Origin: an uncultured bacterium
GTDB taxonomy: Bacteria > Auribacterota > JACPWU01
Reading direction: 5' to 3'
Assembly (NCBI GenBank): GCA_964640155.1
Contig: CAZXEQ010000001.1
Span: 111,256 to 143,255 of the forward strand
DNA length: 32,000 bases
Positions 6,348 through 32,000 of the stretch are shown here, in pieces (within the stretch, counting starts at the first letter, position 1; each line of letters opens with the position of its first letter). The position numbers and the translations under genes are program-made. The notes beneath the pieces were generated by a model. That model saw only the letters and a program-made list of their open reading frames with translations. It made no database searches and was not told where the DNA came from.

Positions 6348-6358
6348 AAATCACCTCT

Positions 6359-18800: not shown

Positions 18801-21800
18801 ATTTTCTATCAAGTAAGGGGTCGTCGGCGACAAAACTGTTTCAAGCTGTCGTGCTAACTCTAGATTGCGCTCCAAACCTTCTAAAATAACTGTCTTCCCT
18901 GCTCTTAAATTCTCAAGAACTTGTTTCGTTTTACTTTGAAAGTGCTGCCCCAATTCAATTTCAATAGAAGAAGTGATATCAGAAAGGTCTGTCGCCGACG
19001 TTACTGGATAAACAATCGCTTCAGGATAAGTTTGCACCAATTTATTTAAAACAAAAGCACGATCAAATCCATTAACAACAAAGGCTTTCGCATCGTTTAC
19101 TTCTTCCAATTTCTTTTTTTCTGGATAGCTCGACCTAGATTTACTCCAATCGATATTTGCAAATTTATGGTATACGTTTGGAATTGAAACACCTGGTCCC
19201 AACCGAATTTGAATTGGCCGTTTCGAATGCATGATTCGATGCCAAACCCAATCTGAAACATGGCTTGTCACCCATAAACAAATAGGATCTTCCCCCTCAT
19301 CCAAAATCCCTTTTTCTTGAACAATTTGCCCTATTTCAGAATTAATTTTGGTTCTTGAAAATAAAGCATCCTGCGTTACCGAATTTATACTCCAAACAGA
19401 TATGTTTTCAGGTATGTCATCATCAAATTTAATTTCTTTTCCTGAAACTCCTTTTTCATAAGAGCCCGAACGCTCAAAAAAACTAAAATGAGAAGGTATT
19501 TGATAAAAAGTTCCATTGAACTTAATTCCACCATCTTGAATAATTTGACGAAGTTTACGAACAAAATCTTCAGAATGTGGCATGCCTTTTAAAATCAAAG
19601 GTTTTCCAGTTTCAATGGCTTGAATCAATTTACCTTTATGAACTTCAAGAAGACCCTTCTCATTTAGACGAAAAGACCCTATTAAAGCTTCTTCAAAAAA
19701 TCGAGATTCATAAAGCTCCACTTCAATGCCATCCAGATCTTCGGGTGCTTTGTCAATACGAAGAACTTCTTCATATTCCCAATTCAAATCCACTTGATTA
19801 CGAAAACGTGAATAAATAGAAACATCAAACATTCTCATTTGTGAATTGGGCATGGCCCCTATAATACGCAAATTTGCAGGAACCTCTATTCTTCCCCATC
19901 GAGTTGTCAAATACCCCTGTGCATCAAAAAGAGAATTTAGTTGCAAAGCTGCCTGAGGTTGAGCATCTTGATAATCAATAAAAATAATTCCTTCCGAACG
20001 AATGGCATCAATTAAGGGGCCTTCAAGCGTTCCATAAGATCCATCTTCTCTTACAACAATGGATGTAAGGAGATTATTAAATTCTTCTAAATCTCTTAAA
20101 TTGATGCGAACATACTTTTTACCTGTTTTTATAGCATACGCTCTTAATCGCTGATCAACCGCATCAGCAGCATTTGAATCTTTCACAAAGGCAAGCGTAT
20201 TTTTTTCTTGTAAAAGAGCTTCCACTTCATCAGGAATATAGGCCTCATATTTCTGAGCCAAAACAGGATTAACTTTCCTAAACGCTTCAAGCAATAGACT
20301 TAACTCTTTATCGGTTGCGCCCACTTCTTGAGCTACTTGCTTGTTTGTCCTCAAGTCTAGTTTTTCTCTTCTCTGTTTTAACCGATTCATCTCAATACGA
20401 ATCAAAACATTTAATGCCTTGGGATTCTCTCTCGCCAAAGTTTCAAACAACTTTTTGTCTATATAAAGCGTATGAGTTCGACCACTTACAGCTTCTCCCT
20501 GTGCAAATTGAACATTTGACATGGTGACAAGACCTGTATTTTTAAATTCTTCCCGAAGAGATTCATCCAAAGTCTTAAAATCATCACCATTAATATAATC
20601 GGCAAGAGGTTGAACACCCATTTCACACAATTTTGAAACAGTGAGTAATTGTGTTGAAGGATTTGAAAGCGCTGGAACTTCTCTTTGAGAGTAAATCTTA
20701 GCTAAAGCCGGATCAATTTCTGCAATAGCATCTAATAATAAATCTAATTCTTCATCAGTCACTTTAGCATCTCTTGCCGCTTGAACACTTGTTCTTTCAT
20801 CTTGTCCATTTTTTCTACGATGAATCAATCGATTCATTTCTATTCGAATCAAAATACTTAAAGCCTTTTGATTTTTTTTAGCCAAATGATCAAAAAGTTT
20901 TCTTCCCATATAAAGAGATTCTATCTTCTCTTCACCCGCTTCCTTACCTCCTTTGCCAAAGTGAGCATAACTGGTTCCCCTGTGATCTCTAGCATTAAAC
21001 AATGCTCCTGCCAAAAGAACTAGTCGGACTCCTTTAAAAGCTTCTTTTATTTCATCATCTAAAGCTTCAAACTCTGCACTCGCCAAATAATTCGTCACCG
21101 TTTGGCTTAAGTTATTTCCATCATCACCAAAAGTTTGCAGAGACGCTGCATCACTCACAATAAAACTTACTGTACCTTGATTCATTTGTGCTTGTCGAGT
21201 GGGTTTAATTCCCAATCTTTTTAATTTGGCTGCCAGAGGAAATCCAACTGTAGTATTTGTAATTCCTCCGACACTAGCCACATGTCCAGAAGCATCAACA
21301 GAAAAACTTCCATATTTTTCTGCCTTTTCAATAAATCTTTGCCCCTCTTCAGAACTCATCTCAGGTGGAGCAGGAGCCTGTGGAGCTCGAAATACCCGTA
21401 CTGTCTGTTCATCATAATCTCCTTGTAAATAAGAAATTAGACGGCCACTTGGTAAGAGCATATGAGAATATTGCAGCCGTTCTCCACTGGGCATCTGATT
21501 AAGCCCTAATGGATTAATTGATTTAAGATGTTTCCCAGAAAAACTATAAAAGGCTTCAGAACCGGTAACACGCAGTGCCCCGTTCATATCTCCCATCAAT
21601 ACCAAAGTTTTTCTAGAATCTTGAGAAATCCGTCGTGCGACCTGATAATCAGGAGCCGGATGATTTTCTGGGACTTCATTCTCAGCAAAATCCCCTATAC
21701 GATCGTAATAGTTCGCACGTGATGGTGGCCAACGCATGAGAATAATGTCTGCAGTGTCAGCTTCTTGACCTGCTTCTTTTCCATCCTTAATATCTGAGGC

Positions 21801-24800
21801 CTCTACTCGAATACCATAGGGTTCTAACAATTGATTCAAACCTCGTGCATGAGCCCCATTGCCAGCTCCGACTTCTTTAATGATAGGATCCTTTCCATAA
21901 CGCTGCCTATATTCGAGTACCAGCTTTAGAATATAATTTGCGGTAGCCTTCAAAGACTCCTGACTATCTAAAGCATAAATTCTCTCTCCTATTCCAGTTT
22001 TACCTAAGAACTCATCTAAAGCCTCCCCGGGAATATCCATTAAAAACAAATGGTTAGATAACGTACGAAGCTCCCACAACGTGGGATAACGACCGAGTTC
22101 TCCTCTCAAAAACTTATTGAGAATCAAAACAGGATTAGTCTCACGGGAAAATCGCCTCAATTCAGGACCAAAAGAAAGGTTATCAAGCAAAGCATTTCCC
22201 ACTGCCTCAGCTGAAGACTGACTTAGATTTGACTGATATTTTCGAAAGAGTGGCAAGCTTTCGCGCAATCGTGGCGAAATTCCCAGAAGAGGATTATTTT
22301 CTTGGTCAAATAAAATCTCAGCATAAACTACAACCCTAAATACCTCCTCCAAGACTGTCTTATTTGCTTCCTCATCAAATCGTATTTTTTCCCAAAGCAA
22401 ATCCCGTAATTTCAGAGTTTCTTCTCTTAGTTCGGGATTACGTAATGCCGCACGAAATTGTGCCACTGAGAATTCTTCTCCCTTTTGGATACGTTCCAGA
22501 AAATCTTCTGCGGTCCTAGGAAGATTGCTTCTCCAATCTAATATTTCTCTCTGAGCATTCACTGGGTCTGTTCCAAGAGAGATAAGTTTCAGATACTCCC
22601 ACGCATCATCAGGATTACCTGTTTCAAGCGATATTGCTTCTGCAACTCCTGCAACATAAGCACCCAATAAATAGCTCCACTCAGGTTCAGGATACAAATG
22701 TCTATAAATCCGTTGTAGAAACGTCCCCCTTCTAATATATTCAGGGATGGAATAGAAAAGATCTCGCCTATGCTTACCTTTTACGCCTGCTTTTTCTGCA
22801 AGCATTTCCCATAGTTTTTCAGGATTATTCCGATTCTCTTTAAAAAGCCTCATTCCTTCATTAACCTGTATATACTCACTTCCAAGAGTCCTAACTTCTC
22901 TTAAAACAGAAATTGCTGTAGCGCCTGGAATATCCATCATATCGCCATCAGCTGAAATAACATGAACCATTTCATGTAATGCTGTTTGATAAAATTGTTT
23001 AGGGCCCGCTGTTGGAAAAATCCATAATCCTGGAACGGCTTCATTTACAAAACCAAACTCTCCAGTCCAAGCACGCCTTAAAGTCATAAGGATGGGAATA
23101 CCAATTTTAAAATGAAAGATGGTAAAAAATATTCCTAAAATAGGATTCAGAAAAAATACGGGGACAATAAAGCTCGCTAAAAGGACGAAAGAAAAAACAT
23201 CCTTCCACCAACCATAACTTTTATACCCCGTTTTAATTCCGGCAAGGATGAACCTGAGTGGTGTATAAATATTAAATCTGGAGATAAGGTTTTTTTCACG
23301 TTCTTTGCGTACATTTTCTGGACGATTTCGATAGATCAAACTTGCAAGAAATTTTGCATGTTCCTCAACTATTCTCTGCTGAGTAGGGGTAACTTGACCA
23401 GATGGAATATCCACCAACCACTTTTTAAAAAAAGTACTAATTAATGAGCTTTCTTCTCCAGAATTGGATGAAATTCTTGTTTTCTTCCCTAATACAATCT
23501 CATCTGTAAAACCATTATTTGCTTCTTCCCCAAAAATCTCGTCTTGCAATCCGTAAAGCAATTCACGCCCTGTACGGTTTTTGTCTGTTCTAGCCGCATT
23601 GTAGCGGATCAATGCAAATTCTGTTTCGTTGTGACGATCTTTGGGAAGTTGGGATTGGATGTATCGGATGAGTTTTTCAGGGTCTGTATATCGATTAATA
23701 TCAGGTAAATTTCTAATATCTTTCCCCACACCTCTTAAGTAAGTATGCGCGTTAACACCAGGAGGAAGTTCTTCAGGATGTAAATGATAATATCCTTCTC
23801 CTAGTTCATGAAAAAATGCGATGGGATTATCTAAAAGAGATTCTTTTAAATAAAGAACTTCACCACCCGAAAATCCATCCACATCAGAATCATCCGAAAG
23901 AACTTTTACAGGTTTACCAAGAACACTTTGTATATGAGCCTCAAAACCTGACGACAATGTACCAGAAACGAGGCCCAATTGCTCAAATGTTAATGGCTGC
24001 TCATCATCTAGCACCGTTGCACGAGGTTCTCTGTCATCTTCAGTGTAAAGAGGTCCTTCAGTAGATTTAAAAGTAACAATACCATCCTTCCCTGTTGCCG
24101 TAATCGCACCTGTCGCCACCCGCCTTCCTCCGGGATGAGAAGCTGGATCCAAATATAATTTTCCAATGAGTCCCCCTCTTTCTCCTTCATTAGAAGGATT
24201 CTGCCCTTTTGGAAGGGGATTTTGACCAATTTGATTTATCTCATCTGGAGGTATTTCAATATCTAACAAATCCAACTTAAAATTATAATTTTTGGACTCA
24301 TCTCGGAATAAGTTTTTAGTCCAATTATTCTCTTCTGCCTCCAATAATTTTTTTTCAACCCATTTTTTGAAGACCGGTAAAAATTCCATCAAATTCACAA
24401 CAACAGTCATCATAAACACAAAAATTCTTCCGAAAAAATAATTTTTTAGCATCCATTTCCCAATCCAAGCATACCTTACAGCAAGTTTTAGAGCTAAAAC
24501 TTGTAAGAGGGACATTTCTCGAATTAAATTTAATTCTTTTAAATCTAATTCTTTTATTTCAAAAAAATTATTATTCTCTCCCTCTCCTTGAAAATATTTA
24601 TTCCAATCATAGCTTTTTCTTCTCATTTCCCTTTCAGGAGCTATAAGTCTATTTATATCTGTAGACGAAAGAGAATTTAAAAGACCATCAAGAGTAACAA
24701 CATCTAAAACTTCTGCAGGACCTGGTATTTCTTCAGTTCCAAATCTCTTTGACCAATTTATAACAAACTCTTGACTGCTCTCAGGGATATCCACTCGTCG

Positions 24801-27800
24801 TGCAATGGCTAATCCAGCAAGAAGATATTTATGAAATTCTTCTGGAAAATATCCGCAAGCAACTTCATCTGTTGCTCCTACCCTCACTAAATCGAACGCC
24901 AGTCGGACCGTCAAATGACTAGACTCCGTTAAGTGCTCTATCAATTTTTCATCCCAACCTGCATGAGCACTATGAAGTTCATGAACCACACCTAATCCCA
25001 TCTTATAAAATTGATACGCCATGACATCATTTTTACGTTTGCGTTCCTCCACAGATAAACCCGCTGATTCATTTTCAATAACCAAAAATCTTTTTAAAGC
25101 TAATGCTTTCCCCACTAAATCTTGCCCATACACTACATCTACATAATGAAGAATTTGTTTCATCGAAGGTTTATCGCCTGCCAAAACTGGAATTCCTAAA
25201 GAAGCCAAAGGCATGCGATCAAATTCTGTAGAAGCACTTTCAAGCAAAGCAAAAGTAGGCCATAAATTTTCCTGAAGTCGATGAACATCTAACCGTCCAT
25301 CAACATTCAACAGCCCACTGATAATCTTAACTTCAATGGTTGGGTAACGAGAAGATAAGTTGATCATAACATCATGCCCACGTGCGTCTTCAGCTGTTTG
25401 GACCATTCCTTCATGAGCAGGCCTTACAAATCCTCCTCGAGGGGCTCGATAGCCATATCCCATCAAAGCCCTCCACATGGCTTCAAAAACTTTAACCACA
25501 CGTGCAAACCTTTTTTTATCAAATTTTCTGTCATCAAATTTATCACCCAGCTCTGTAAGAGATTTCCGTCCCACATGCATATGCACACTATGAAGTCCTC
25601 CAGGCAATATCTCTTGCAACTCTGTTAATCCTTGTTTGAGCCCGGCCCAATCCCTATTCGTATTCTCATGATATTCTCCTGCTGGATTCGCTGATTTTAT
25701 TTCGATCACATTCGCTGAATTTTCTACTAATCTCCATCCAGAAGGTAATACAGATTGAACTCTTTCTAAAACACGAGCCCTTGCCTTTTCCCATTTTCCT
25801 GCTGGAAGTTTTTTGTTTTCCTCCCATAAAAATAATTCATCTGGGGTCAGAGCAAGAGAAGTAAGATCATCATCTGTAATTTGATCCGTAACTAAAAATT
25901 CTAGTTCTAAAGAAAAGGTGGTGTCACTTGCAAAGGGAAGTCGACCTTGAACATTAAACTCCGCTACTCTAAGAGCTTCAAAAAGTTCTTCACGTTCAGC
26001 TTCAGATAGAGTCGAAACATTTTCTAGTAGTTTTCGGACTCTTTCACGTAACGCTGGCGGGCTACGCCCTCGAAGAACCTCTCTAAGAACATAATCTGGA
26101 ATTTTTGCTTGTTGTTCATATAATCCCAAACCTGCGAAAGCCAATCTTAAATCTTGACCTCCAAAATCTTGATGCAATCTATCACCCATCAATAATGAAG
26201 AATAAAAATCCGACGCCGGGCGTAAAACATCTAGGGGGATCTGCAGGGTTGTTTGTGTTACGGGTCTAGTGCGTTCACATTCTCTTAACTGAGTACTAAA
26301 CGCATTATTAGCTTCTTCCCCAAAAAAATCATCCTGTAAACCATGGAGCAATGCTCGACCTATCCGATTTTTTTTCGCATTCAGTCTTATAAGGGCAAAC
26401 TCGGCAAGATTAATTCTTTCTTCTCGACCTTCTGCTCTAAATGTTCTCTCAACTAAATCAATAAATCCAATTGCATTCCCACTTTCAAGTAGAGTAGCTC
26501 CTTCATCTGTTGAAGCAATCTCTCTTACATCTTTTCCAACACCTCTTAAGTGAGTATGTGCATTTAATGCCATTGTTTGTGAATCGTCTCGACCCGGGAG
26601 TTGATCAGGATGCTGTACAAAATATCCCTCACCCCATTCATGAAGGAGAGCCATTGGATTTTTAATTAAGGATTCTTTTAAATACAGAACATTTCCATCT
26701 GAAAAGCCATCCACATCAGAATCTTCTGAAAGAACTTTGATGGATTGACCCAGCATACTTCGTAAAGTTTCAAAACCTGGTGTCAATGTTCTGGATACGA
26801 CTCCTGAGTTGTCATCCTCGAATGTATCTATCGGGGATCCATCGATTTCCGGAATGACATCTAAAAATGTCAATAGCTGCTCATCACGCAATACTTTTGC
26901 CTGAGCTGGTTCTTTCTTTTTATTATAAAGAGGTCTTTTAGTTTCCCCATCACTGGTCGTAAAGCTCACAAATCCATTCACATCTTCCGTTGCCGTAATG
27001 GGCCCTATTGCCACTTGCTTACCATCTTTATCCAAAAATAATTTTCCAATAAGACCTACAAAGCTGGCTTCCTCTAAAGGCTGAGAAACACCTGAAGATG
27101 TTGATATCAGATTTTGAGATTGCTTCATATATTCTCTGATCGGAATCATTCCTTGCCCCGTTTTCACAAAAATAAAATCAGGGGGGATATCTCTAATAGG
27201 GAGAGGAAAACCATCCGTTCCAAATTCCTCTTCAAGATTGACTTCAAGCTCTCCTAAACTTTCTGGAGAAATATTCTCTTTAGCCCAACTTTTGGGAATA
27301 CGCAGCACTAAAATAATAGGAATACGACTCGATTGAGCATTAACCTCAGTAACCTTATCATGAGGACCATTTTTAACAACATGATCATGAGCCAATTGTG
27401 GATCTGGCGTTCCATAAATAGCCATAATTGGATTCCCAGGTTCGTAAAAAGCTGTCATTCCTTCATGTGCAATAGCTTCCATGTTCTCTGGCACTGTACC
27501 ATGATAAACAACATAATTATTTACGTAATCTTCTTGCGGATTTTGCTCTCGCAAAGCTGCAGACCTGACACGACCTTGAGCTCTTATAATCAATTTTTCT
27601 GCTTTATGAATGGATTCTATTTCCGATGGGAATTCTTTTCTCATGACTTCAATAAATGCCTGGCATCTCTCGATACATCCCTGATATTGACCTCCCTTAA
27701 ATAATGCGTTAGCTCCATCCATTATTTGAAGTAACTGTCTTAATCTCTCTTGAATTCTTGCATTTTCAGATGCAGCAGCTCTTTGTCGCTGAGCTTCTCT

Positions 27801-30800
27801 TTCAGTAGCCGTTGCTTTCATTTGAATTCCTAACGAATTATTCTTTTCTTCTCCAAAGATACGATCCTGCAATCCATAAAGCAAGGCTTGCCCCGTTCGA
27901 CCTCGTAACGCATTCCATTGAATTAATGCAAGTTCTGCTTCATTATGACGATTTGACGGAAGTTGTGACTTAATGTATCGGATAAGATCTTCAGCTCTAA
28001 TATATTGATCCATAGGAATAGGAAGTAGTGATAAAATATATTCCAGGTAAGATTTAACTCTCGTATATTGATCTATATTCGGCAGATTTCTTACATCTTT
28101 TCCCACCCCTCTTAAATAAGTATGAGCTGTCACACCTTCGGGAAGTTCTTTGGGGTGTAAATAAAAATATCCTTCGCATACTTCATGAAACAACGCTATA
28201 GGATTCTCTAAAAGTTCTCTCCTTAAATAAAGAACCTTGCCATCCGAAAATCCTTTTACAGCTGAATGCTCTGGGAGAATTTTTACTTGGTTACTCGAAA
28301 GAAAATTACGAAAGTAAATTCTTAACGGAGAGCCTTCTTGAATTTCTCGATCAAAATTTGCTCGAGTTTGTGGATCTAATCCTCTAAGCCATTCATCAAA
28401 TGAAAAAGTTTTTGTTCCTTCTTCTAATCGAAGGTCTCTTGTTTTTTCAGCTTTTGCATAAAGAGGCTTTCCATTCGTCGTCGTAAAACTGACCACCCCA
28501 TTTGATTCTGTGGCTATAACATCTCCCGTTACCACCTCTTGAAAATCCGGATCCAAATACAATTTTCCGGTGAGACCGCCTGTAGATGGTCTAAGAGGTT
28601 TTAATCCTGATACTTTCGAGTTCAAAAGCTCAACCAGTTTATTATAATATTCTAAAACAGCTTGAGCTGTACGACCATGGCGCTGGATAGACTCCTTCAT
28701 CAAAAGAATAAACGGATCAAAATCATCTCGATTATCATGCAAAAGTCGATCCTCTTCATATTTAATCGCGTACTCCCATGACTCGAATGACTCTGCTGTT
28801 GAAATAGCATCTTCTATTTCACCCTCTTCTATAAATGCTCTTAGTTCATTAAAAAATGTTTTGATCTCTGATTCGTTTAGAACTTGACAGGATTGAATTT
28901 GCTTTTCTGCAAAAACTCTCTTCCTTTCTAAAACATCTTTTTCACTAGGAGTTTTCGAAAAATCAATTCCATTGGCCTTGTCTAAAACAAATCCTGCCAA
29001 ATTTTCACCCAAATCACATTGTCGTCTGACTTGGCTTGAAAACAAGTTAAACACTCGTGAAAATTCTCCATCCAAATCTAAAAAACACTTCCTCCATAAT
29101 TCAGTATCTGTCATAAACTCATCTAGATTCATTCTAGACACCCCACCCCACAAAGGACGATCAGAAATAGAATTAGCCTTATCTAACGCTTCTCGAAAAA
29201 GAGGGTTTATACTTGTAATAGTTGGATTTTTTCCTCCATTACGCTTTGGCGTCAAACTAAAAGGATCTTCTGATAAAAAATAATAATTATCATGAAAAAA
29301 CATTTTTCCTGCTGCAATTGCTTGACATAAAGAAACATCTCCTGTTACCAAATTGGGAAATCCCCGTAAACCCTTATCAAAATCTAACCTACCCGTATAT
29401 AATAGAAGAGAAATAAAAAGTTCAGGATCCAGAAAATCCAAGGTAATGACTCTAATCTTTTTATCTCTAATACGAATTTCTTCATAACCCAAAGCATCCT
29501 TTTCGAGTTTTTCTTCAACCATAACCCCTGGCATTCTAAATACTGTCACTCCTTCTTCAGGGAAAGATCTAGGATCTTTTTCCATCGCTTCCTTTAAGGA
29601 GTCCATATAACGCTCAAAAGCTTCCGGCCTTTGATAATAAGCGAAGCCCCATGCGCTTTGAGTCGTACTGTTTAAGCTGCTACTCATTTCTGATAATACA
29701 GCTTTATCTGTTTTATTTTTCGAATCTACTATCTGCCTCAAAACTTCTACACGTGACTGAATAATTTCTTCTTTTTTTGTTTCTTGAATTACGTCATTTC
29801 GCCTTACAATCTCTGGATCAATCAAAACACTTCCTTTTTGAAATTTTGCAGGGACTTCGCCTTTATTTCTGGAGACTGCAAAACCTGTTGGAATCATATA
29901 AAAATCGGCATCGGAAAAAGGATCTCGATCTTCATAAAAATCATTGGTTCTAGCTCCCAAAACAGGAATGATCACTTTTATTCTAGAACCATCTTCATGA
30001 TAGCGAGTATGAGTTATTTCATGCCTTAAACCTCCTTTAACGAACTCCAGATTGTCTAGTCCAAAAAAGAATGAAACATCTGCCTTTTCAATATCATCAG
30101 TTTCTGAATAAATCAGATTCACATTTGGAAGAGTTCGTAACAAAACAACGGCTCTTCTAAAAAAATCAAGATCTGGATCAGGTTGGCGGCTATCGATTAA
30201 AACATTCTTACGTAAAATGACATTGAATTTCTTATCCTGAAATCCTTCTTGATTCATTAAACTTTTAACAAAGGTGTATAATCCTCCAATATTTCCAAAT
30301 CCTCCTCCTTTATTCCATAAATACACATTGATTACTTGAAAATCTTTTTCAGTTCCTGCTTTTACATTTTCTTGATTTGGAGTTTGAGATTTCAACTCAC
30401 GAACCAACTCTTGAAATTTAGATCTTTCTTGTACGTAGGCGTATAAAAAATGAGAAAAATTATTATTTCCAAATACCGTCTCAACTATTTGAATCGCATG
30501 TCGAGATCGATCTGTCCAGTCGCCAGATAAATGAGCCAGTAAACTTGAGAAAAGATAATATTGAACTTTCAAGACAGGGGAATTCGAATTTTTTTCATTA
30601 AAAAAAATGAATAAATTTTGAGGCAGATCATACGCTGCACCTAAAAAATAATCATTTTCATGCCATACTTTAGCCTCACACTTTGTAAATTTTGCTTTGC
30701 ATCGAATAGAATCACAAATATCTTCAATGGCCTCCGAAAATGCTTTTTGATCTGCATCACTTAACAAAGTCATTCTTTCCTTAAAAAGGAGATAAAATTG

Positions 30801-32000
30801 TGAAGTCTCTTTATCCATATTTTTAACATTGTGATCTTCCAACGTTCTCCTTTGAATATCTTGGACAGCTAATTCGTTTCCATTTTGACCACAAAAAGCC
30901 AATACATCAGTCGACTTAGCAGTTAAATTTAACTTTCCAAAAAAAACTTCAAACATAGCAATAAGTCCGGGATACTCAGATTGATAATTCTTTTGCAGAA
31001 AATCTACGGTTATTTCTGCTTGTGTCTGATCACTAGGATTAAGTTCAGCAAGCTTTCCACTGATTTCTTCAGGATAAAACTCTGCAATAATTTTAAGAAT
31101 ATTTGCAATTTGTTCTGAATTGAGTGTATCTAAAAAAGCTTTGTCTTTACCCTCTCTCATCAATTTATTTAAAAGTTCGTTAAACTTTTGCCTTCTTACT
31201 TCTGAAGATCCAAGCATTTCTTCCCACAACCTTCGTTCATGCTCATCAAAAGTACCTTTGGCCACACGCTCGAGCATTGCTCCAAAAGAAGGCAAAGCCA
31301 AAGTCCAATATCCGTCTTTCTGAACTCTAGAGGCCAAACGCTTTTCAGAAAATTCATTTTCATCAAATGAGATATTCTCATCCATCATTAATTTTTCATA
31401 AAGAACATCTGAACCTAGTTCTGTAACTTTGGGGGTCAAAGTAATATATGAAATTCCCTTTTCTTCTAAGAGCTTTTGTATACCTTCGGTGTGAAAACCT
31501 CCAGTAATTAAAACAGGGGTTTGGGGATGATGGATGGTGCCATCCACTGCCTTTAACGCATTTTCCGTCATTACTTTGTCTCGCTCTAGAGCGTATTGAT
31601 AAAAGTGCTGGGAAGATTGAATTAAATGATGAAGCGACTCTATGTTTGGGATTGCTTCGTCAGCCGTTGCAATCGGCTTCCTCGCAATGACATGCGCATT
31701 AGAGATCTTGTCATTGCGAACGACTGAAAGGAGTGAAGCAATCTCTGTAAGTTTTTTTTGAAATTTATCAAAATCCAACTTCTTTATTCTCTCCAAATCT
31801 TTTCTGGGCAATTTTAACTGAATGAAGTCATTTACGAGTTCCCATTCTTGTTTTAACTTCCATTCATCTTGTAAATTTTCTTTTTGAACCATCCTTTCAA
31901 TCATGTTTTTTAAATCGCTTAAACAAGTTTCGATTAACTTTTCCAAATCCATTTTTTCTTGTTTTTCAAGAAATGAGAAATATTCCTCAAGAAGTGGAAA
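6831..32000 (-). CDS. Giant multidomain protein, at least 8,373 aa; the reading frame is still open at the right window edge, so the true start is probably outside the window
   Basis: A single stop-free frame runs from the TAA at 6831-6833 up to nt 32000 in an AT-rich sequence. The first in-window ATG is at 31950-31952, but the 16 codons upstream of it (FPLLEEYFSFLEKQEK) contain no stop. The translation contains many recognisable motifs, listed as sub-features below. Confidence 0.93.
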   Translation of the reverse strand, partial: FPLLEEYFSFLEKQEKMDLEKLIETCLSDLKNMIERMVQKENLQDEWKLKQEWELVNDFIQLKLPRKDLERIKKLDFDKFQKKLTEIASLLSVVRNDKISNAHVIARKPIATADEAIPNIESLHHLIQSSQHFYQYALERDKVMTENALKAVDGTIHHPQTPVLITGGFHTEGIQKLLEEKGISYITLTPKVTELGSDVLYEKLMMDENISFDENEFSEKRLASRVQKDGYWTLALPSFGAMLERVAKGTFDEHERRLWEEMLGSSEVRRQKFNELLNKLMREGKDKAFLDTLNSEQIANILKIIAEFYPEEISGKLAELNPSDQTQAEITVDFLQKNYQSEYPGLIAMFEVFFGKLNLTAKSTDVLAFCGQNGNELAVQDIQRRTLEDHNVKNMDKETSQFYLLFKERMTLLSDADQKAFSEAIEDICDSIRCKAKFTKCEAKVWHENDYFLGAAYDLPQNLFIFFNEKNSNSPVLKVQYYLFSSLLAHLSGDWTDRSRHAIQIVETVFGNNNFSHFLYAYVQERSKFQELVRELKSQTPNQENVKAGTEKDFQVINVYLWNKGGGFGNIGGLYTFVKSLMNQEGFQDKKFNVILRKNVLIDSRQPDPDLDFFRRAVVLLRTLPNVNLIYSETDDIEKADVSFFFGLDNLEFVKGGLRHEITHTRYHEDGSRIKVIIPVLGARTNDFYEDRDPFSDADFYMIPTGFAVSRNKGEVPAKFQKGSVLIDPEIVRRNDVIQETKKEEIIQSRVEVLRQIVDSKNKTDKAVLSEMSSSLNSTTQSAWGFAYYQRPEAFERYMDSLKEAMEKDPRSFPEEGVTVFRMPGVMVEEKLEKDALGYEEIRIRDKKIRVITLDFLDPELFISLLLYTGRLDFDKGLRGFPNLVTGDVSLCQAIAAGKMFFHDNYYFLSEDPFSLTPKRNGGKNPTITSINPLFREALDKANSISDRPLWGGVSRMNLDEFMTDTELWRKCFLDLDGEFSRVFNLFSSQVRRQCDLGENLAGFVLDKANGIDFSKTPSEKDVLERKRVFAEKQIQSCQVLNESEIKTFFNELRAFIEEGEIEDAISTAESFESWEYAIKYEEDRLLHDNRDDFDPFILLMKESIQRHGRTAQAVLEYYNKLVELLNSKVSGLKPLRPSTGGLTGKLYLDPDFQEVVTGDVIATESNGVVSFTTTNGKPLYAKAEKTRDLRLEEGTKTFSFDEWLRGLDPQTRANFDREIQEGSPLRIYFRNFLSSNQVKILPEHSAVKGFSDGKVLYLRRELLENPIALFHEVCEGYFYLHPKELPEGVTAHTYLRGVGKDVRNLPNIDQYTRVKSYLEYILSLLPIPMDQYIRAEDLIRYIKSQLPSNRHNEAELALIQWNALRGRTGQALLYGLQDRIFGEEKNNSLGIQMKATATEREAQRQRAAASENARIQERLRQLLQIMDGANALFKGGQYQGCIERCQAFIEVMRKEFPSEIESIHKAEKLIIRAQGRVRSAALREQNPQEDYVNNYVVYHGTVPENMEAIAHEGMTAFYEPGNPIMAIYGTPDPQLAHDHVVKNGPHDKVTEVNAQSSRIPIILVLRIPKSWAKENISPESLGELEVNLEEEFGTDGFPLPIRDIPPDFIFVKTGQGMIPIREYMKQSQNLISTSSGVSQPLEEASFVGLIGKLFLDKDGKQVAIGPITATEDVNGFVSFTTSDGETKRPLYNKKKEPAQAKVLRDEQLLTFLDVIPEIDGSPIDTFEDDNSGVVSRTLTPGFETLRSMLGQSIKVLSEDSDVDGFSDGNVLYLKESLIKNPMALLHEWGEGYFVQHPDQLPGRDDSQTMALNAHTHLRGVGKDVREIASTDEGATLLESGNAIGFIDLVERTFRAEGREERINLAEFALIRLNAKKNRIGRALLHGLQDDFFGEEANNAFSTQLRECERTRPVTQTTLQIPLDVLRPASDFYSSLLMGDRLHQDFGGQDLRLAFAGLGLYEQQAKIPDYVLREVLRGRSPPALRERVRKLLENVSTLSEAEREELFEALRVAEFNVQGRLPFASDTTFSLELEFLVTDQITDDDLTSLALTPDELFLWEENKKLPAGKWEKARARVLERVQSVLPSGWRLVENSANVIEIKSANPAGEYHENTNRDWAGLKQGLTELQEILPGGLHSVHMHVGRKSLTELGDKFDDRKFDKKRFARVVKVFEAMWRALMGYGYRAPRGGFVRPAHEGMVQTAEDARGHDVMINLSSRYPTIEVKIISGLLNVDGRLDVHRLQENLWPTFALLESASTEFDRMPLASLGIPVLAGDKPSMKQILHYVDVVYGQDLVGKALALKRFLVIENESAGLSVEERKRKNDVMAYQFYKMGLGVVHELHSAHAGWDEKLIEHLTESSHLTVRLAFDLVRVGATDEVACGYFPEEFHKYLLAGLAIARRVDIPESSQEFVINWSKRFGTEEIPGPAEVLDVVTLDGLLNSLSSTDINRLIAPEREMRRKSYDWNKYFQGEGENNNFFEIKELDLKELNLIREMSLLQVLALKLAVRYAWIGKWMLKNYFFGRIFVFMMTVVVNLMEFLPVFKKWVEKKLLEAEENNWTKNLFRDESKNYNFKLDLLDIEIPPDEINQIGQNPLPKGQNPSNEGERGGLIGKLYLDPASHPGGRRVATGAITATGKDGIVTFKSTEGPLYTEDDREPRATVLDDEQPLTFEQLGLVSGTLSSGFEAHIQSVLGKPVKVLSDDSDVDGFSGGEVLYLKESLLDNPIAFFHELGEGYYHLHPEELPPGVNAHTYLRGVGKDIRNLPDINRYTDPEKLIRYIQSQLPKDRHNETEFALIRYNAARTDKNRTGRELLYGLQDEIFGEEANNGFTDEIVLGKKTRISSNSGEESSLISTFFKKWLVDIPSGQVTPTQQRIVEEHAKFLASLIYRNRPENVRKEREKNLISRFNIYTPLRFILAGIKTGYKSYGWWKDVFSFVLLASFIVPVFFLNPILGIFFTIFHFKIGIPILMTLRRAWTGEFGFVNEAVPGLWIFPTAGPKQFYQTALHEMVHVISADGDMMDIPGATAISVLREVRTLGSEYIQVNEGMRLFKENRNNPEKLWEMLAEKAGVKGKHRRDLFYSIPEYIRRGTFLQRIYRHLYPEPEWSYLLGAYVAGVAEAISLETGNPDDAWEYLKLISLGTDPVNAQREILDWRSNLPRTAEDFLERIQKGEEFSVAQFRAALRNPELREETLKLRDLLWEKIRFDEEANKTVLEEVFRVVVYAEILFDQENNPLLGISPRLRESLPLFRKYQSNLSQSSAEAVGNALLDNLSFGPELRRFSRETNPVLILNKFLRGELGRYPTLWELRTLSNHLFLMDIPGEALDEFLGKTGIGERIYALDSQESLKATANYILKLVLEYRQRYGKDPIIKEVGAGNGAHARGLNQLLEPYGIRVEASDIKDGKEAGQEADTADIILMRWPPSRANYYDRIGDFAENEVPENHPAPDYQVARRISQDSRKTLVLMGDMNGALRVTGSEAFYSFSGKHLKSINPLGLNQMPSGERLQYSHMLLPSGRLISYLQGDYDEQTVRVFRAPQAPAPPEMSSEEGQRFIEKAEKYGSFSVDASGHVASVGGITNTTVGFPLAAKLKRLGIKPTRQAQMNQGTVSFIVSDAASLQTFGDDGNNLSQTVTNYLASAEFEALDDEIKEAFKGVRLVLLAGALFNARDHRGTSYAHFGKGGKEAGEEKIESLYMGRKLFDHLAKKNQKALSILIRIEMNRLIHRRKNGQDERTSVQAARDAKVTDEELDLLLDAIAEIDPALAKIYSQREVPALSNPSTQLLTVSKLCEMGVQPLADYINGDDFKTLDESLREEFKNTGLVTMSNVQFAQGEAVSGRTHTLYIDKKLFETLARENPKALNVLIRIEMNRLKQRREKLDLRTNKQVAQEVGATDKELSLLLEAFRKVNPVLAQKYEAYIPDEVEALLQEKNTLAFVKDSNAADAVDQRLRAYAIKTGKKYVRINLRDLEEFNNLLTSIVVREDGSYGTLEGPLIDAIRSEGIIFIDYQDAQPQAALQLNSLFDAQGYLTTRWGRIEVPANLRIIGAMPNSQMRMFDVSIYSRFRNQVDLNWEYEEVLRIDKAPEDLDGIEVELYESRFFEEALIGSFRLNEKGLLEVHKGKLIQAIETGKPLILKGMPHSEDFVRKLRQIIQDGGIKFNGTFYQIPSHFSFFERSGSYEKGVSGKEIKFDDDIPENISVWSINSVTQDALFSRTKINSEIGQIVQEKGILDEGEDPICLWVTSHVSDWVWHRIMHSKRPIQIRLGPGVSIPNVYHKFANIDWSKSRSSYPEKKKLEEVNDAKAFVVNGFDRAFVLNKLVQTYPEAIVYPVTSATDLSDITSSIEIELGQHFQSKTKQVLENLRAGKTVILEGLERNLELARQLETVLSPTTPYLIENGKRVNLNELSGRLILVGSLSKFSHIKNKAFLSPDKDEIKSIVQKEFNQPGETGVMSDEDYSKLEKLMVVFGNAAGSPSISKDVLERYGGRYIFPVLGEAEELARLYPEHVNYVLAQLRQLCRYRQATGRLGPQGWREAIEAMIISRYEDFPELAAYMRVKMRLAFPMEDGRADTIDGRRLKTITNEIVYPMTLRDRYWQLMDTMSDKLLARQTIPSFFVGRQEEYEPALNQIRTAQIRDATMRGDHERAEYYKAKYGIKEIPIGSESPITTVALGDDQEDILQAREEKCIQLLGIYPAVFLRGPPGVGKSHLSQELAQKLKLKNYGPVSVGADISESDVLVARQFNAEQKRVAYITQTIAQWALDTEGGLLTIDEANLSHPDFWSFLGGIFEAKPYVWINGRQHFLTDRHKIIFTGNQEKMTGRRFQNLLLRYVPTVNFSEFDQAFYEKQIKNYLLPEQAQYASIIYDLFLAFKKMGEGRSFSLRDIQEISYRVRSLPATGTEQVVEIAWEVMRGLFTVEERVSLQHIIAKKYGVRILKEKSVKTGAREVHRAEGQPPIVYTQSVLDFQDTVKQFLLMRDRRLADALEEKTFPQGKRGLLFEGPSGRGKDLVAAHLLEKEGYQKGRLDEPEEIGKNPKKFYHITASLNYEDMARVIERARREGSIVILSEMNQIPSAILEGKLNASLTGEAAEGFALIGTINSIDFGGRERLSTALQNRLIYHRISDYPQIELEEILRESLGGRISPDLLKRLVGWHCYLRDTIENPSERPTIRELIRAGELLVRGEAAAVTPPAPLNVRGESVSPLMLKGDQGELLLEDLFSQIFSKIYGPVYFKILEADGKTFDYEKAEKYQESTQVDNAIVLEKNAQMIIPVNGRKVRLAWDAVTKNGGYYDAKKHVIALSTENPIGENPKVLDHEASHGLFTHLIIFPEQLWPRKSWFNLYMWLEDHRMENALRHHFPKVDLSDNQEIAFVEAVQQANFEKLIKMKFSSVFLYALSTYARGLMSKQVIEALDKVWEVHQGKYKPNPFKLALKYLDVARTIIGVDPAIRAQDTSLESEWGMIPLTLDQEEVEFQYFKMLRELSKHPEMILDYEKLVEGEKEEKLEESEEETSGDELSATKVEVANQRLAALDLVGALSVSKEAPQKVTQVNRLAANIVMVKISKIKIMRDAILHYMIMTPVRAILFCLKTLWKILKKVDHTIFSGIEKTLAKVLLRIRYRVIDQAKTEKEIDIPQWIKSLRPLLTVVELATTIDFLYLAISGKASVVSIMLCYGIVLIFNMILFILFPSLFSSSFINTHAKESKYEPKIIRDQQKIEDGLPTYTEYNSIDEAVKASLQHERKIPEGTTDPLEVLFPTFQERSNALRKLLKPFFQNKLEFGSKVYGPDGSALNVQGLVDGDPNRFFVKSGVTEEETPKEIILIIPKEGLGPESLNPLSEAAFIYLFSQGFTVTVYTGNNVRQKGINHPTTLRAALKAPSNCDPALIRQDLATRSRGSYIVTTLDEVQACVEAEFLHALLVAPEAEKTEAKETPKKAEPVTSQTDDDKSRENVKRWIALLEDSIKNEKDELIKRKAEDALGLIYAKKFSQQELEAKVDEKPAGSRAAAIALGIQYVEMGIEKNSNNITNWGIRLTTSSEPHLDHIAEIMGRVYAKQVEKGLSITNLEKGLQDENAAIRMAAVIALGLVYVKMLEDGKDVDLSLIQNMLKDKDPNVASAAVDTFESVYAKMHEKNKKIPLSDIAKDTNEMVQYAITRAIGYAMDASPEVITQGSPLARLGAAIVSGPIYAERVKNDKMDVSELEKMLEIGNDVQRLAATIALGKVCLDAIGKIETGSTKQEAGNPVIPESSNRGSIESESNLVFGPITKTVTMFDAYELEKIILRDSEKLPVSSRRSGSVHCLACSPDGTQVVAGLFEGPLRLLEKKDEEWIVSNLEGHKNTVYSVSWSPDGNRIVSVSLDGKFRIWEKNAEGKWDSSEQFLERVSKVSDVAWSPDGTQFVSGWGDGALRIWQKNSAGKWGGPEFLRKSSIRMDGQGVAWSPDGTQIISGSADGTLNIWKKDSEGKWISGDVLKGHTGPITSVSWSPDGTQIVSASSDKTLRVWKKDEKNQWISSEPKQHKGRVTGIAWSPDSKRIVSVADGSRLQIWGKRGGDDWVLYLKSDESVRSSEGSVVWSSDGERIITSNISGSIYILKGKGEGRKVEVETWGMTPKKAVGASTEDIARFDPEKSLADIRVFESFEVERQRKLIIDALVARTIPRETAEKKVTIKEGNFLIVDLEGSYPEDVSFLKGMTRVCEILFGLGHSDTDIAVLKELPYLKKIFLAGANEIPLSGLGELTQLEEITILALVPEQLRLNRLTKLKVLALWASDITEEKVLEYFIHHPNRENLTIQLFENDNEKKDDARIKKEYRWEPEGRTYFEERRETQKAEIREFLKEKYQLNDWEISDRLTLTPDGFLALNLSDLPRVADISRLRGMTLLKVLNLNGTKVSDISVLEGIPHLEELHLEGSIVVIGEPEIDVLISLVNLRELNLKGLAVDDRTIFQIFWRHPNRQNLRVINKEGKLYDVKMLQTSAAGVVVSADRQQVEEERLQIINDLMGRGISKDAAEFAVVTRSYDAFLEVNLNRLNLKDIEFLRGRKRIKQLRLVETLNIKDLSPIEGMDLESLDLNGSKFKITIKEHELFLSLKKLVSLDLTGVGIHEEIENIFIQGLFHAHSNRRNLSVVNQDGTRSYDAENPEILRIIEAGEKFEAEEQKKLVEAFLEKWKLSESSINILDGGVLELNLVGKAFSEDALREFNDLLHRLTQLKKMIVQDFEFENLGFLENAGQVEELILGLRDLKDLSGIRNLKNLKRLYLAHCHEVRDLDDLKDLAHLEEFGFDTTPIALKEISKLRSLKQLSIRVTDLFSLFSEGDQEQFRDQIFELILTHPNPDLEVKFGEEVLNKNSEKVKDYKARKNRDAVLRALPSIVGILENSEPELSLEEQKREIEEYLRGYGLTEYQISQALEVKENDFLELSFIYKARPPKFEGQDIDSLATDHPNISLLKRMTRLKKVVFNNIGDLSALRGLNLTEVVIMRLTSSEDEIFELFRQHPDGRNFKVNTRVLPKELREYKIDDKDVQEYIARKNAEEAAVKTGTAGIAAISDAEGKRQREVILNFLNDLGMDSDEINRRFAVRDDGFLELDLSRTQVQDIRKLSGLTNLKKLVLNTLVHDLSPLYGLENLSELIISSVFRVFETELSFNDYMPGLGELFTRHPHPENLRVTLRNEGRMSTDEHMYNYDSPEVKAYIVRKNAEDVQAKVTSQSSPIPDAEQERQKQLILKFLREDLKLDEVQIKIAFKIKEGFFSLDLRFAKEIKNIHKLKSLTNLQELIFWMQPVKDKDIRALNGLNLTKLDLRDTQVQDLATIFEFFRQHPNPKNLTVNVSGFKDNVLRWDSPEVLAYVKANGGWVHEAEAKATEAQLSPRQRMLLNMVGFLVSPMETLKKVEERLQAEGKYEILNGFIKLIVKGGSSGILKSRNLKATGTAQAFVREKSPNVATPPIPQSSSTPSGNLGFAPDFEVSHTQGIENAEVGQDVKRDLGEAGIEATTKTQVTDQAMSFVVENAAQDNQKIGFGDKLAQYVSTLSPDIQNLFKSTRLVLFSGRTYVARNEKGTSYAHFGMGGDAAKRAREERSTLYIGKDLFLFLLKNNHAALTTLIKIEMNRREYREKNGSPIGTLGDDSGGVVANNKGKDSRTSEQVIQDAQISQADLDQLKKAIAKAEIELLLQKIPPQELAKAIIVSAQKMDDIGGDIIKAGDIPLGFLRGALLEAAVEELSKRLPADEQRTVASSAAQIQKRKKENRVAQLVDQIQKYLNKDSEGLELDLSMAEVRINQGVGREPKSIPLSSALQQLLSQMMGKRAGLTQRIYIDFSKGPMDLRIVLSALLEGESLTGHESMRIENFSMQRQKMSGEETIYIVVVHEKDPMPRPHRKEITTGRSFVEISA
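7660..7965 (-). repeat. Giant protein: unknown module S, copy C, near the C-terminus
   Basis: KLAQYVSTLSPDIQNLFKSTRLVLFSGRTYVARNEKGTSYAHFGMGGDAAKRAREERSTLYIGKDLFLFLLKNNHAALTTLIKIEMNRREYREKNG. Confidence 0.7.
8410..12090 (-). repeat. Giant protein: seven tandem composite units (~160-215 aa each), each made of a helical head, 3-5 leucine-rich repeats and a conserved cap F..HPN..NL.V
   Basis: The cap motifs are EYFIHHPNRENLTI (~11650), FWRHPNRQNLRV (~11140), FHAHSNRRNLSV (~10645), ILTHPNPDLEV (~10000), FRQHPDGRNFKV (~9512), FTRHPHPENLRV (~9022) and FRQHPNPKNLTV (~8547). LRRs look like LSGLTNLKKLVLNTLVHDLSPLYGLENLSELII. Heads look like EEQKKLVEAFLEKWKLSE...GVLELNL. Confidence 0.8.
12215..13120 (-). 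other. Giant protein: seven-bladed WD40 beta-propeller
   Basis: There are seven units of the form ...V.SV.WSPDG..IVS.S.D.TLRIW.K: CLACSPDGTQVV, SVSWSPDGNRIV, DVAWSPDGTQFV, GVAWSPDGTQII, SVSWSPDGTQIV, GIAWSPDSKRIV and VVWSSDGERII. Confidence 0.9.
13325..14085 (-). other. Giant protein: HEAT-like (PBS-lyase type) repeats
   Basis: A ...AA.ALG..Y.. unit recurs: AEDALGLIYAK, SRAAAIALGIQYVE, AAIRMAAVIALGLVYVK, DPNVASAAVDTFESVYAK, ARLGAAIVSGPIYAE and VQRLAATIALGKV. Confidence 0.6.
14925..15060 (-). other. Giant protein: hydrophobic TM segment(s)
   Basis: The sequence is LLTVVELATTIDFLYLAISGKASVVSIMLCYGIVLIFNMILFILFPSLF. At least one long uncharged stretch is compatible with a membrane helix. Confidence 0.55.
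15900..16200 (-). other. Giant protein: second HExxH motif (HEASH at 16035-16049), possibly a DUF2201_N-like metallopeptidase region downstream of the AAA+ array
   Basis: The sequence is KKHVIALSTENPIGENPKVLDHEASHGLFTH. HExxH followed by a further His is seen directly; the family assignment is inference. Confidence 0.4.
16440..20210 (-). other. Giant protein: concatenated AAA+ (AAA_5 / MoxR-midasin-dynein-like) array with two canonical P-loops and about four degenerate upstream units
   Basis: The first canonical unit has Walker A GPPGVGKS (17871-17894) and Walker B LLTIDEAN (17670-17693). The second has Walker A GPSGRGKD (16971-16994) and Walker B-like IVILSEMN (16785-16808). Upstream AAA_5-like units lack P-loops, for example GPLIDAIRSEGIIFIDYQDAQPQAALQLNSLFD...IEVPANLRIIGAMP, KLIQAIETGKPLILKG and LENLRAGKTVILEGLERN. 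Confidence 0.7.
20360..20605 (-). repeat. Giant protein: unknown module S, copy B (degenerate)
   Basis: DDFKTLDESLREEFKNTGLVTMSNVQFAQGEAVSGRTHTLYIDKKLFETLARENPKALNVLIRIEMNRLKQRREK; this copy lacks the GTSYAHFG box. Confidence 0.65.
20800..21175 (-). repeat. Giant protein: unknown module S, copy A (GTSYAHFG...IEMNR)
   Basis: TVSFIVSDAASLQTF...EFEALDDEIKEAFKGVRLVLLAGALFNARDHRGTSYAHFGKGGKEAGEEKIESLYMGRKLFDHLAKKNQKALSILIRIEMNRLIHRRKNG. Confidence 0.7.
21540..21950 (-). other. Giant protein: class I SAM-dependent methyltransferase-like region
   Basis: Motif I IIKEVGAGNGAHA lies at 21846-21875. An acidic residue follows at the end of the next strand (IRVEASD), and then ADIILMRWPP (~21722-21748). 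Confidence 0.45.
22962..23230 (-). other. Giant protein: two predicted TM helices followed by an HExxH zinc-metallopeptidase motif (HEMVH at 22962-22976)
   Basis: The sequence WWKDVFSFVLLASFIVPVFFLNPILGIFFTIFHFKIGIPILMTL is followed about 45 aa later by QTALHEMVHVISADGD. Confidence 0.45.
23514..24173 (-). repeat. Giant protein: unknown module R, copy 3 (220 aa)
   Basis: GLIGKLYLDP...IVTFKSTEGPLY...DGFSGGEVLYLKESLLDNPIAFFHELGEGYYHLHPEELPPGVNAHTYLRGVGKDIRNLPDI...FALIRYNAARTDKNRTGRELLYGLQDEIFGEEANN. Confidence 0.8.
25230..25930 (-). other. Giant protein: glutamine-synthetase-fold amidoligase-like signature (Amidoligase_2 / carboxylate-amine ligase type)
   Basis: The ordered motifs are TFSLELEF (25896-25919), NVIEIKSANP, GGLHSVHMHVG (SVHMHVG at 25569-25589), YRAPRGGFVRP and YPTIEVKIISG (~25321-25346). 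This mirrors the E.E ... E..SP ... HvHvG ... R ... E.R/K strand pattern of that fold. Confidence 0.45.
26304..27056 (-). repeat. Giant protein: unknown module R, copy 2 (251 aa)
   Basis: GLIGKLFLDK...FVSFTTSDGETKRPLY...DGFSDGNVLYLKESLIKNPMALLHEWGEGYFVQHPDQLPG...NAHTHLRGVGKDVREI...FALIRLNAKKNRIGRALLHGLQDDFFGEEANN. Confidence 0.8.
27150..27515 (-). other. Giant protein: H-Y-E type (diphtheria toxin / exotoxin A-like) ADP-ribosyltransferase signature
   Basis: The motif YVVYHGTVPENMEAIAHEGM places the candidate His codon at 27501-27503. AIYGTPDPQLAHDH follows with its Tyr 29 residues after that His (compare ExoA GFYIAGDPALAYGY, Tyr at +30). SLGELEVNLEEE follows later (compare ExoA GGRLETILG, which carries the catalytic Glu). 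Confidence 0.4.
27837..28580 (-). repeat. Giant protein: unknown module R, copy 1 (248 aa)
   Basis: GLTGKLYLDP...VVSFTTTNGKPLY...KGFSDGKVLYLRRELLENPIALFHEVCEGYFYLHPKELPEGVTAHTYLRGVGKDVRNLPNI...LALIQWNA...GQALLYGLQDRIFGEEKNN. Confidence 0.8.
29270..30350 (-). other. Giant protein: EarP-like (GT-B, arginine rhamnosyltransferase family) signature, approximate bounds
   Basis: The N-terminal VINVYLWNKGGGFGNIGGLYTFVKSL resembles EarP DIFC.V.DN.GDIGV.WRLA..L, with N in place of D in GDIG. The mid motif AWGFAYYQRPEAF resembles ISLFAYENPAL. The C-terminal PNLVTGDVSLCQAIAAGKMFFHDNYY resembles N.VRGEDSFVRAQWAG.P..WHIY. The ~360-aa span fits EarP length. All comparisons are from memory. Confidence 0.35.
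31440..32000 (-). other. Giant protein: C-terminal half of a TraB/GumN/Tiki-like domain (second GxxH motif)
   Basis: The segment ALERDKVMTENALKAV...TPVLITGGFHTEGIQKLLEEKGISYITL matches the family pattern eRN..m...i...vGagHL.G..G....L...Gy.v. The N-terminal half of such a domain, with the first GxxH motif, is not in the window. Confidence 0.4.

Follow-up and report, generated by a model that had tools for sequence, protein, structure and literature searches.

What does a domain do that is repeated within one giant protein, each time followed by another segment? This question is raised by a 32,000-nucleotide stretch of DNA from an uncultured bacterium of the Auribacterota (lineage JACPWU01; assembly GCA_964640155.1, contig CAZXEQ010000001.1, positions 111,256 to 143,255), the whole of which is hereafter called the window. 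All three copies of the module in question, designated M1, M2 and M3, are found within a single minus-strand open reading frame (ORF), referred to here as the giant ORF (Table 1). A preliminary description of the locus had suggested that the module could be a reiterated adaptor or delivery unit paired with variable heads. The analysis reported here indicated that it constitutes a previously undescribed, lineage-restricted domain family of ~220 amino acids (aa) that recurs in giant or secreted proteins. This new domain family is best read as a new version of an embedded zincin-like hydrolase, its membership in the zincins not being established.

The relationship among the three copies was clear from several independent comparisons. 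The motifs GL[TI]GKL[YF]LD, HE..EGY, AHT[YH]LRGVGKD and GLQD..FGEE.NN were each found three times when the whole protein was searched with regular expressions, and 200-aa tiles compared by BLASTP matched module against module with E values of 1e-30 to 1e-50. Global pairwise identity amounted to 42.7% for M1/M2, 55.6% for M1/M3 and 55.2% for M2/M3, and ~80 columns were invariant in the MAFFT alignment of the three sequences. The earlier claim of three paralogous modules sharing the same ordered boxes was borne out by these regular-expression, BLASTP and MAFFT results. M1, M2 and M3 are old true paralogues, whose divergence is too large for an assembly artefact or a recent duplication. The explanation of their similarity by chance, low complexity or faulty assembly has practically no probability left, being ruled out by the pairwise E values, by ~100 independent homologues from many samples, and by the confident fold prediction given below together with an orthologue from another assembly at 61-76% identity.

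Table 1. Features of the giant ORF. Positions are those of the window; residue i of the giant protein corresponds to the codon ending at 31952-3(i-1).
Feature	Position	Strand	Residues (aa)	Remarks
Giant ORF	6831..31952	minus		8,373 aa from first ATG at 31952; frame open up to 32000
M1	27837..28580	minus	1125-1372	hmmsearch domain E 9e-118 (A1 profile), 5.5e-75 (family profile)
GLTGKLY, N-terminal boundary motif of M1	28557..28577	minus		after Pro/Ser/Gly-rich linker
HEVCE motif of M1	28173..28187	minus	1256-1260	candidate metal or catalytic site on long helix
AHTYLRGVGKD box of M1	28095..28127	minus	1276-1286	His is candidate third ligand
H1, head between M1 and M2	27057..27836	minus	1373-1632	YHGT motif
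M2	26304..27056	minus	1633-1883	
GLIGKLF, N-terminal boundary motif of M2	27036..27056	minus		
HEWGE motif of M2	26628..26642	minus	1771-1775	
AHTHLRGVGKD box of M2	26529..26561	minus	1798-1808	
H2, head between M2 and M3	24174..26303	minus	1884-2593	no counterpart in Auribacterota orthologue
M3	23514..24173	minus	2594-2813	copy used for structure model
GLIGKLY, N-terminal boundary motif of M3	24153..24173	minus		
HELGE motif of M3	23796..23810	minus	2715-2719	HELAH in orthologue
AHTYLRGVGKD box of M3	23718..23750	minus	2735-2745	
H3, examined part of head	20853..23513	minus	2814-3700	

The alignment and hidden Markov model search that had been proposed for the module recovered ~100 relatives. 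When 1.84 billion cluster representatives were searched exhaustively with HMMER and a profile of the three copies, 103 proteins were retrieved at E<=1e-3, of which 64 also passed E<=1e-10 and 16 E<=1e-30; 27 of the relatives carried two or three copies of the module. These proteins had a median length of ~2,090 aa and a maximum of 7,815 aa, most of them measuring 1,000-7,800 aa. Every relative with a named source came from a metagenome-assembled genome (MAG), mostly of Candidatus Omnitrophota, the other names being Candidatus Auribacterota, 'PVC group bacterium' and, for two short contigs, Elusimicrobiota. In a scan of species-representative genomes with the A1 profile, the closest relatives were two loci, one in an Auribacterota MAG (73% identity to M3) and one in a PVC-group MAG. 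Two scans of metagenome contigs gave no matches, and no relatives of the module were found by tblastn in phage and plasmid collections. The family is found in MAGs of Omnitrophota, Auribacterota and other members of the PVC group, where it forms part of very large multidomain proteins that are secreted or associated with membranes.

The preliminary description had been unable to assign the module to a named family, and searches of Pfam, NCBIfam, PADLOC and PDB sequences found none either, only weak matches being obtained in PHROGs. Profiles of 3, 56 and 47 sequences gave no module match among PDB sequences, and when the 56 members of alignment A2 were compared with Pfam at E<=10, no family was matched by more than one member. 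In PHROGs, only phrog_87, annotated as 'metallo-protease', was matched by more than one of these members (3 of 56; best E 0.0095, range 0.0095-0.098), the alignments spanning a strand and the HExxH helix at profile positions 35-96 of 227. None of the profile searches returned a confident hit to a known family.

The pattern of conservation was derived from 91 domain copies, belonging to ~100 proteins, aligned to the profile. The boxes previously termed invariant are so in the three window copies, and HExxE, HTxxRGxG[KE]DxR, ExxLIxYN and GxQD were retained at ~90-100% across the family, whereas the V[ST]F[TK][TS] strand was not family-wide and the FGEExNN tail was restricted to one subfamily. 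In the HExxE motif, conservation reached 96% for the His, 97% for the first Glu and 91% for the second. The HTxxRGxG[KE]DxR box was kept to a similar degree (H 98%, T 90%, R 97%, G 100%, G 99%, R 91%), its invariant His lying 10-25 residues past the HExxE motif, with a mode of 16. Toward the C-terminus, ExxLIxYN (E 98%, N 96%) and GxQD (Q 87%, D 88%) were observed, and further conserved core positions included a Gly (88%) followed by [F], a Tyr (84%) followed by [LIV], a Leu and the pair P.A. Besides the His and Glu residues, the invariant polar positions comprised R147, K151, D152, R154, E185, N192, Q210 and D211 (M3 numbering). No Cys was invariant in the family, that of RGCGKD being Val or Ala in many copies, including those of the window. 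The N-terminal 70 positions were variable, except for the opening motif [GND][GS]?LIGK[LV][FY], which directly follows G/S/P/E-rich linkers.

The motif census counted HExxE in 83 of the 91 copies and HExxH in six. The statement that the motif is not a standard HExxH therefore holds for the three window copies but not for these six, nor for the orthologue of M3 (75% identity), which reads HELAHGY. Such replacement of the second Glu by His, in six copies and in the M3 orthologue, suggests that this residue behaves like a metal ligand. Moreover, in the lineage formed by the relatives P0054 and P0091, H119, E120, H140, T141 and R144 were replaced together, with the other invariants kept, which would be the pattern expected on inactivation of one functional site. 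The earlier impression that the conserved His and Glu residues are functional agrees with their conservation at ~91-98% family-wide and with this joint loss. The family-wide invariants, almost all of them polar, appear to be more in keeping with catalysis than with the role of a passive adaptor.

A structure prediction for one copy followed by a fold search, as the preliminary description had proposed, was carried out on M3. AlphaFold2 with 56 homologues gave a confident model (predicted local distance difference test, pLDDT, 92.8; predicted template modelling score, pTM, 0.87; model m6b7365e0fcb8), and a run with only the three paralogues (pLDDT 55) was discarded. In the model, an N-terminal beta lobe of approximately residues 1-60, with strands at 24-29, 32-37 and 52-60, is connected by a linker to a core spanning approximately residues 72-220. 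The core opens with a helix (75-84), followed by strands at 88-92, 100-102 and 107-110 and by helix 117-131, which carries H122, E123 and E126. Helix 142-147 begins at H143-T144 and ends at R147-G148, and later helices bear E185, N192, Q210 and D211. On this prediction, the module is an autonomous, confidently foldable unit, and it is bounded by flexible linkers.

In minimal zincins, a backing helix is followed by a small sheet, the motif helix, and a helical lobe that contributes a further ligand-capable residue. The order of secondary-structure elements in the M3 model appears to be the same, as judged from knowledge of the fold and not from superposition. The sub-significant Foldseek matches of the model included a SprT-like phage protein (probability 0.41), a phage 'proteolytic enzyme' and ZMPSTE24, and several of those in BFVD were large phage polyvalent-type proteins. 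The phrog_87 matches seem to agree with these weak fold matches and with the interchange of Glu and His, homology not being established by them.

The reading favoured here is that the module derives from the zincins and acts as a metal-dependent hydrolase, probably on peptides, and that it may process the giant polyprotein; this reading is proposed tentatively, at somewhat below an even chance. Its parts are not equally firm. Zincin ancestry with a His/Glu/His metal site is about evenly balanced: the module core would descend from the zincin (HExxH) metallopeptidase scaffold, the candidate metal ligands being the His that opens the motif, the Glu or His at its fifth position, and the invariant His of HTxxRG ~16 residues downstream, and the Glu beside the first His would serve as general base. 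That the module is an active hydrolase, probably a peptidase, is possible and rather more doubtful than its ancestry. Cleavage of the giant precursor by its own modules, at their boundaries, is speculative and decidedly less probable. In this case, the module, embedded between unrelated heads, would cut the precursor at or near its own linkers, possibly just before the L-I-G-K-L-[FY] strand that opens every module, and such a cut would lead to the release of module-plus-head units. An equally improbable version of the same idea would make the module an autoprocessing metalloprotease cassette whose HExxE...H site cuts the boundaries of functional units, the giants being polyproteins and the module copies doubling as recombination joints through which effector or enzyme heads are exchanged, gained and lost. 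The modules lie between G/S/P/E-rich linkers and begin with the highly conserved LIGKL[FY], and many relatives have N-terminal signal peptides. The support for the favoured reading as a whole is weak but points the same way.

Several results weigh against it. First, the module has no significant link, by sequence or structure, to any zincin or other known family: no module was matched in Pfam at E<=1, in NCBIfam or in PADLOC; a core-only profile met only chance matches among PDB sequences (COP9 subunit 3 and a putative hydrolase, E ~1); and the confident M3 model found no PDB match at E < 1 and no BFVD match at E < 0.2 in Foldseek, with TM-scores of at most 0.24. The phrog_87 matches were marginal, motif-driven and restricted to HExxH variants. 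Second, the window copies read HEVCE, HEWGE and HELGE, without an HExxH on the active-site helix, and no significant match to a curated peptidase profile was obtained. Third, 34 relatives present a lone module before one conserved C-terminal domain, not between variable heads, and nothing among the results shows cleavage of the giant protein. Finally, minimal zincins do not typically have so many further invariant residues (Arg, Lys, Asp, Asn and Gln), which could mean that the substrate is another one, for instance a glycan or a small molecule with phosphoryl or carboxyl groups.

This last point bears on another explanation, considered unlikely while deserving attention, according to which the module has a catalytic function other than that of a peptidase. 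As a metal-dependent hydrolase or transferase, it would act on something other than protein (glycan or peptidoglycan of a prey cell envelope, a nucleotide, a phospho-compound), and would represent a common catalytic unit placed beside varied accessory domains. The extension of the polar invariants well past the His/Glu triad, from R147 to D211 as listed above, is in line with this possibility, as are the lack of a significant match to any protease family, the secretion of many relatives, and published work on Omnitrophota giant proteins that points to cell-wall degradation. However, an H-E-x-G-[E/H] helix placed after a short sheet is the classic zincin layout, the sole recurrent weak matches are to metalloproteases, and no carbohydrate- or nucleotide-binding family was detected.

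The segments that accompany the module were compared as well. It had been claimed that each copy is followed by a different candidate enzymatic domain, and the segments do differ, since the 120 segments downstream of modules fell into 64 BLAST clusters, mostly singletons. The claim fails for the largest cluster, however, in which 34 proteins ('type B') carry a single module followed by a conserved, Pfam-dark C-terminal domain of ~240 aa. This domain ends in ...W..I.dW..aq.evlrSL (examples are P0009, P0022, P0036, P0038 and P0067), is not present in the window protein, and may be a sorting or anchoring domain; many of the type B proteins of Omnitrophota start with a typical signal peptide. In other relatives, the module was the first domain after the leader or lay 26-90 residues from the C-terminus. 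No resemblance to the heads or the module was found for the type B C-terminal domain or for any other region of the masked giant protein.

The identities suggested for the heads of the window protein were not confirmed. H1, proposed to be ART-like, had only sub-threshold matches to Tpt1/KptA (E 0.07 in Pfam, 0.035 in NCBIfam) and no usable match in PDB (phmmer), the protein collection, PADLOC or PHROGs; it is 68% conserved in the Auribacterota orthologue. For H2, no amidoligase or other match was obtained in Pfam, NCBIfam, PDB (phmmer), PADLOC or PHROGs. H3 retained from its earlier description only the hydrophobic segments (aa 2923-2956) and a HEMVH motif (aa 2993); it had no family match in Pfam or NCBIfam, and most of it is missing from the orthologue.

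It is in this architecture that the adaptor proposal finds its arguments. Under it, the module would be a non-catalytic adaptor, docking or delivery unit whose His and Glu residues make up either a metal site of structural importance or a surface for interaction, and which presents, anchors or targets the adjacent head, for example toward a machine for secretion or sorting. The module nearly always precedes another segment, whether it stands after a signal peptide or leader, in the penultimate position in 34 proteins, or between heads in the giants; the heads vary, the modules act as recombination joints for the gain and loss of heads, and a few copies with degenerate motifs persist. Nevertheless, it would be unusual for a passive adaptor to keep ~14 polar or charged positions nearly invariant among copies that are ~30% identical, and the repeated exchange of Glu for His at one position points to a metal ligand and not to a docking surface. 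Moreover, the window shows no gene for a partner or a secretion system; downstream of the giant ORF lie those of HigB/HigA, an acyl-CoA dehydrogenase, EtfB/EtfA, a BamD-like tetratricopeptide repeat protein and an LptE-like lipoprotein. The adaptor is regarded as rather improbable.

Independently of the function of the module, the comparison of the giant protein (aa 1125-4814) with an orthologue encoded by contig JAYRIK010000065.1 (L002), from an Auribacterota MAG, revealed how such proteins may be remodelled. The orthologue is colinear with aa 1125-1889 of the giant protein (68% identity) and then continues directly with the counterpart of aa 3909-4814 (61%). It has two modules instead of three, the first of which is 76% identical to M1. 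In the second module, the first ~35 residues were 80% identical to M2 and 56% to M3, and the remainder was 72-84% identical to M3 and 28-65% to M2; it is this module that has HELAHGY where M3 has HELGEGY, a two-nucleotide change (CAT vs GAA). Approximately 960 aa, comprising the greater part of M2, H2 and the beginning of M3, are missing from the orthologue, together with another ~1,075 aa corresponding to H3 and two copies of a second repeat described below. The second module of the orthologue is thus an M2/M3 chimera. In the simplest reading of these sequences, it was produced by recombination between two modules, an event that removed the ~960 aa in the orthologue or added them in the lineage of the window. 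The chimeric module thus indicates that modules recombine and that heads are gained or lost, and it is direct evidence, whatever the function of the module, for repeated modules driving a cassette-like remodelling of giant proteins.

Among known systems, the minimal zincins and gluzincins (ImmA/IrrE M78, SprT/Wss1-type, minigluzincins, M48) are those that the module core appears to resemble in layout. In both, going by the M3 model for the module, a short beta-sheet is followed by an H-E-x-G-[H/E] helix and then by a further ligand-capable residue, in the module the invariant His, which opens the next helix 10-25 residues beyond the motif and leads into a helical lower lobe; some members of the family have a genuine HExxH, and the weak matches to phrog_87, SprT-like proteins and ZMPSTE24 fall in the same region. 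The differences lie in the lack of any significant profile or fold match, in the second ligand position, which is Glu in 91% of copies, and in the HTxxRGxG[KE]DxR, ExxLIxYN and GxQD boxes and the LIGKL[FY] N-lobe, which have no identifiable counterpart in those enzymes.

Zincin-like peptidase domains (MPTase-PolyVal, DUF4157) have reportedly been described by Iyer, Aravind and colleagues in polyvalent proteins of phages and conjugative elements and in polymorphic toxins, and are said to have been proposed to release neighbouring domains. The concept is alike, namely a small metallopeptidase-like domain inside a very large multi-effector polypeptide. Unlike them, the module had no Pfam match at E<=10 to these families for any of 56 members, and the phage and plasmid collections contained no relatives of it; the window has no evident gene of the immunity type, although a HigBA pair lies downstream, and the module is reiterated within one protein, whereas theirs is present once. 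In MARTX toxins, effector domains are released by a single internal Cys protease activated by inositol hexakisphosphate. These toxins provide a working analogy, since they too are giant multi-head polypeptides in which effector-like domains are separated by linkers and a processing domain is internal. In contrast, the module has no conserved Cys/His dyad and no Pfam match, is repeated, and occurs in another taxon.

The giant multi-enzyme ('Archaeovorin'-type) proteins of Omnitrophota are similar in lineage, in their very long ORFs with unrelated domains, and in their hydrophobic segments, Pfam-dark stretches and internal repeats. The window protein shows this architecture, with more than 8,373 aa, AAA_5, HEAT, WD40 and leucine-rich repeat (LRR) domains, hydrophobic segments and two triplicated modules. 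At 8.4 thousand aa it is smaller than the giants of bioRxiv 10.1101/2023.11.21.568195 and 10.64898/2026.06.07.730766, which have 10-30 thousand aa or more. Whether and where Omnitrophota giant proteins are cleaved is treated as an open question in the relevant passages of bioRxiv 10.1101/2023.11.21.568195, and passages of both papers consider possible cleavage by C39 and S8 domains, which were not found in the window protein. The module is not mentioned in the passages of either paper that deal with zincins or HExxH motifs, novel domains and cleavage.

The remainder of the giant protein also has recognisable organisation. No stop codon was found in the 16 codons between its first ATG and position 32000, and these upstream in-frame codons (FPLLEEYFSFLEKQEK) align with a fP.L..Y..Y motif conserved in homologues; together, these results indicate that the edge of the window truncates the giant gene at its 5' end. 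Residues 1-200 form a second conserved domain (window 31353-32000 including the upstream codons) with the motifs FYEYSFKRD, TGGFHTEN and SYVSI.P, which may resemble those of the ChaN/Tiki/TraB superfamily, a mere lead for which Pfam gave no support. This domain is common to 42 of the 103 module-bearing relatives, in which it is always placed at approximately residues 345-545, behind a signal peptide and a region with IHIQDAHCNY...GAE. From this placement it follows that the window protein lacks ~330 N-terminal residues. Farther along, an AAA_5 ATPase domain was found at approximately aa 4683-4804 (E 1e-18), and HEAT repeats, a WD40 propeller, LRRs and a few hydrophobic segments were also observed.

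A second triplicated module is present in the same protein, at window positions 20643-21335, 20238-20642 and 7413-8165 (aa 3540-3770, 3771-3905 and 7930-8180), with the motif GTSYAHFG ... LY.G..LF..L..N..AL..LI.IEMNR and pairwise E values of ~1e-6 to 1e-29. No Pfam match was obtained for this module (GTSYAHFG...LIRIEMNR), and the idea that it is a degenerate HExxE module was rejected on an hhalign probability of 0.2%. HExxH motifs occur elsewhere in the giant protein, as HEITH at aa 644, HEMVH at aa 2993 (22962-22976) and HEASH at aa 5302 (...HVIALSTENPIGENPKVLDHEASHGLF), the last in a strand-plus-helix context typical of zincins; none of the three had a Pfam match.

As for the surroundings, genes for a HigB-like toxin and a helix-turn-helix antitoxin lie directly downstream of the giant gene, on the minus strand (window 6036-6753), the toxin ORF starting 78 bp past the giant stop codon. 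One relative of the module, P0013 (4,227 aa), is listed by NCBI as a RelE/ParE-family toxin, a hint that the association, or a fusion, may be recurrent. The genes flanking the giant ORF are also present on a Logan assembly contig of SRR8893623. Searches of the window for tRNAs and Rfam families gave no matches. At the far end of the window, positions 4-156 hold a 45-bp tandem repeat (3.4 copies, 93% match) that encodes in one frame a low-complexity peptide of the DDGSGSGSGSGSDD type, and the first ~900 bases have 47% GC and a strong GC skew, compared with ~38% GC in the rest of the window.

Few predicted proteins are as large as the giants of Omnitrophota and their relatives, in which long portions are without a match to any known domain. 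With the module family come a profile, a set of putative catalytic residues and LIGKL[FY] as a possible boundary motif, and with them a handle on the question of whether these proteins act as single chains or are cut up. If the HExxE...H site does bind a metal, it would represent a new ligand arrangement on a zincin-like scaffold. The module is a concrete handle on the organisation, processing and remodelling of the giant proteins of the PVC group.

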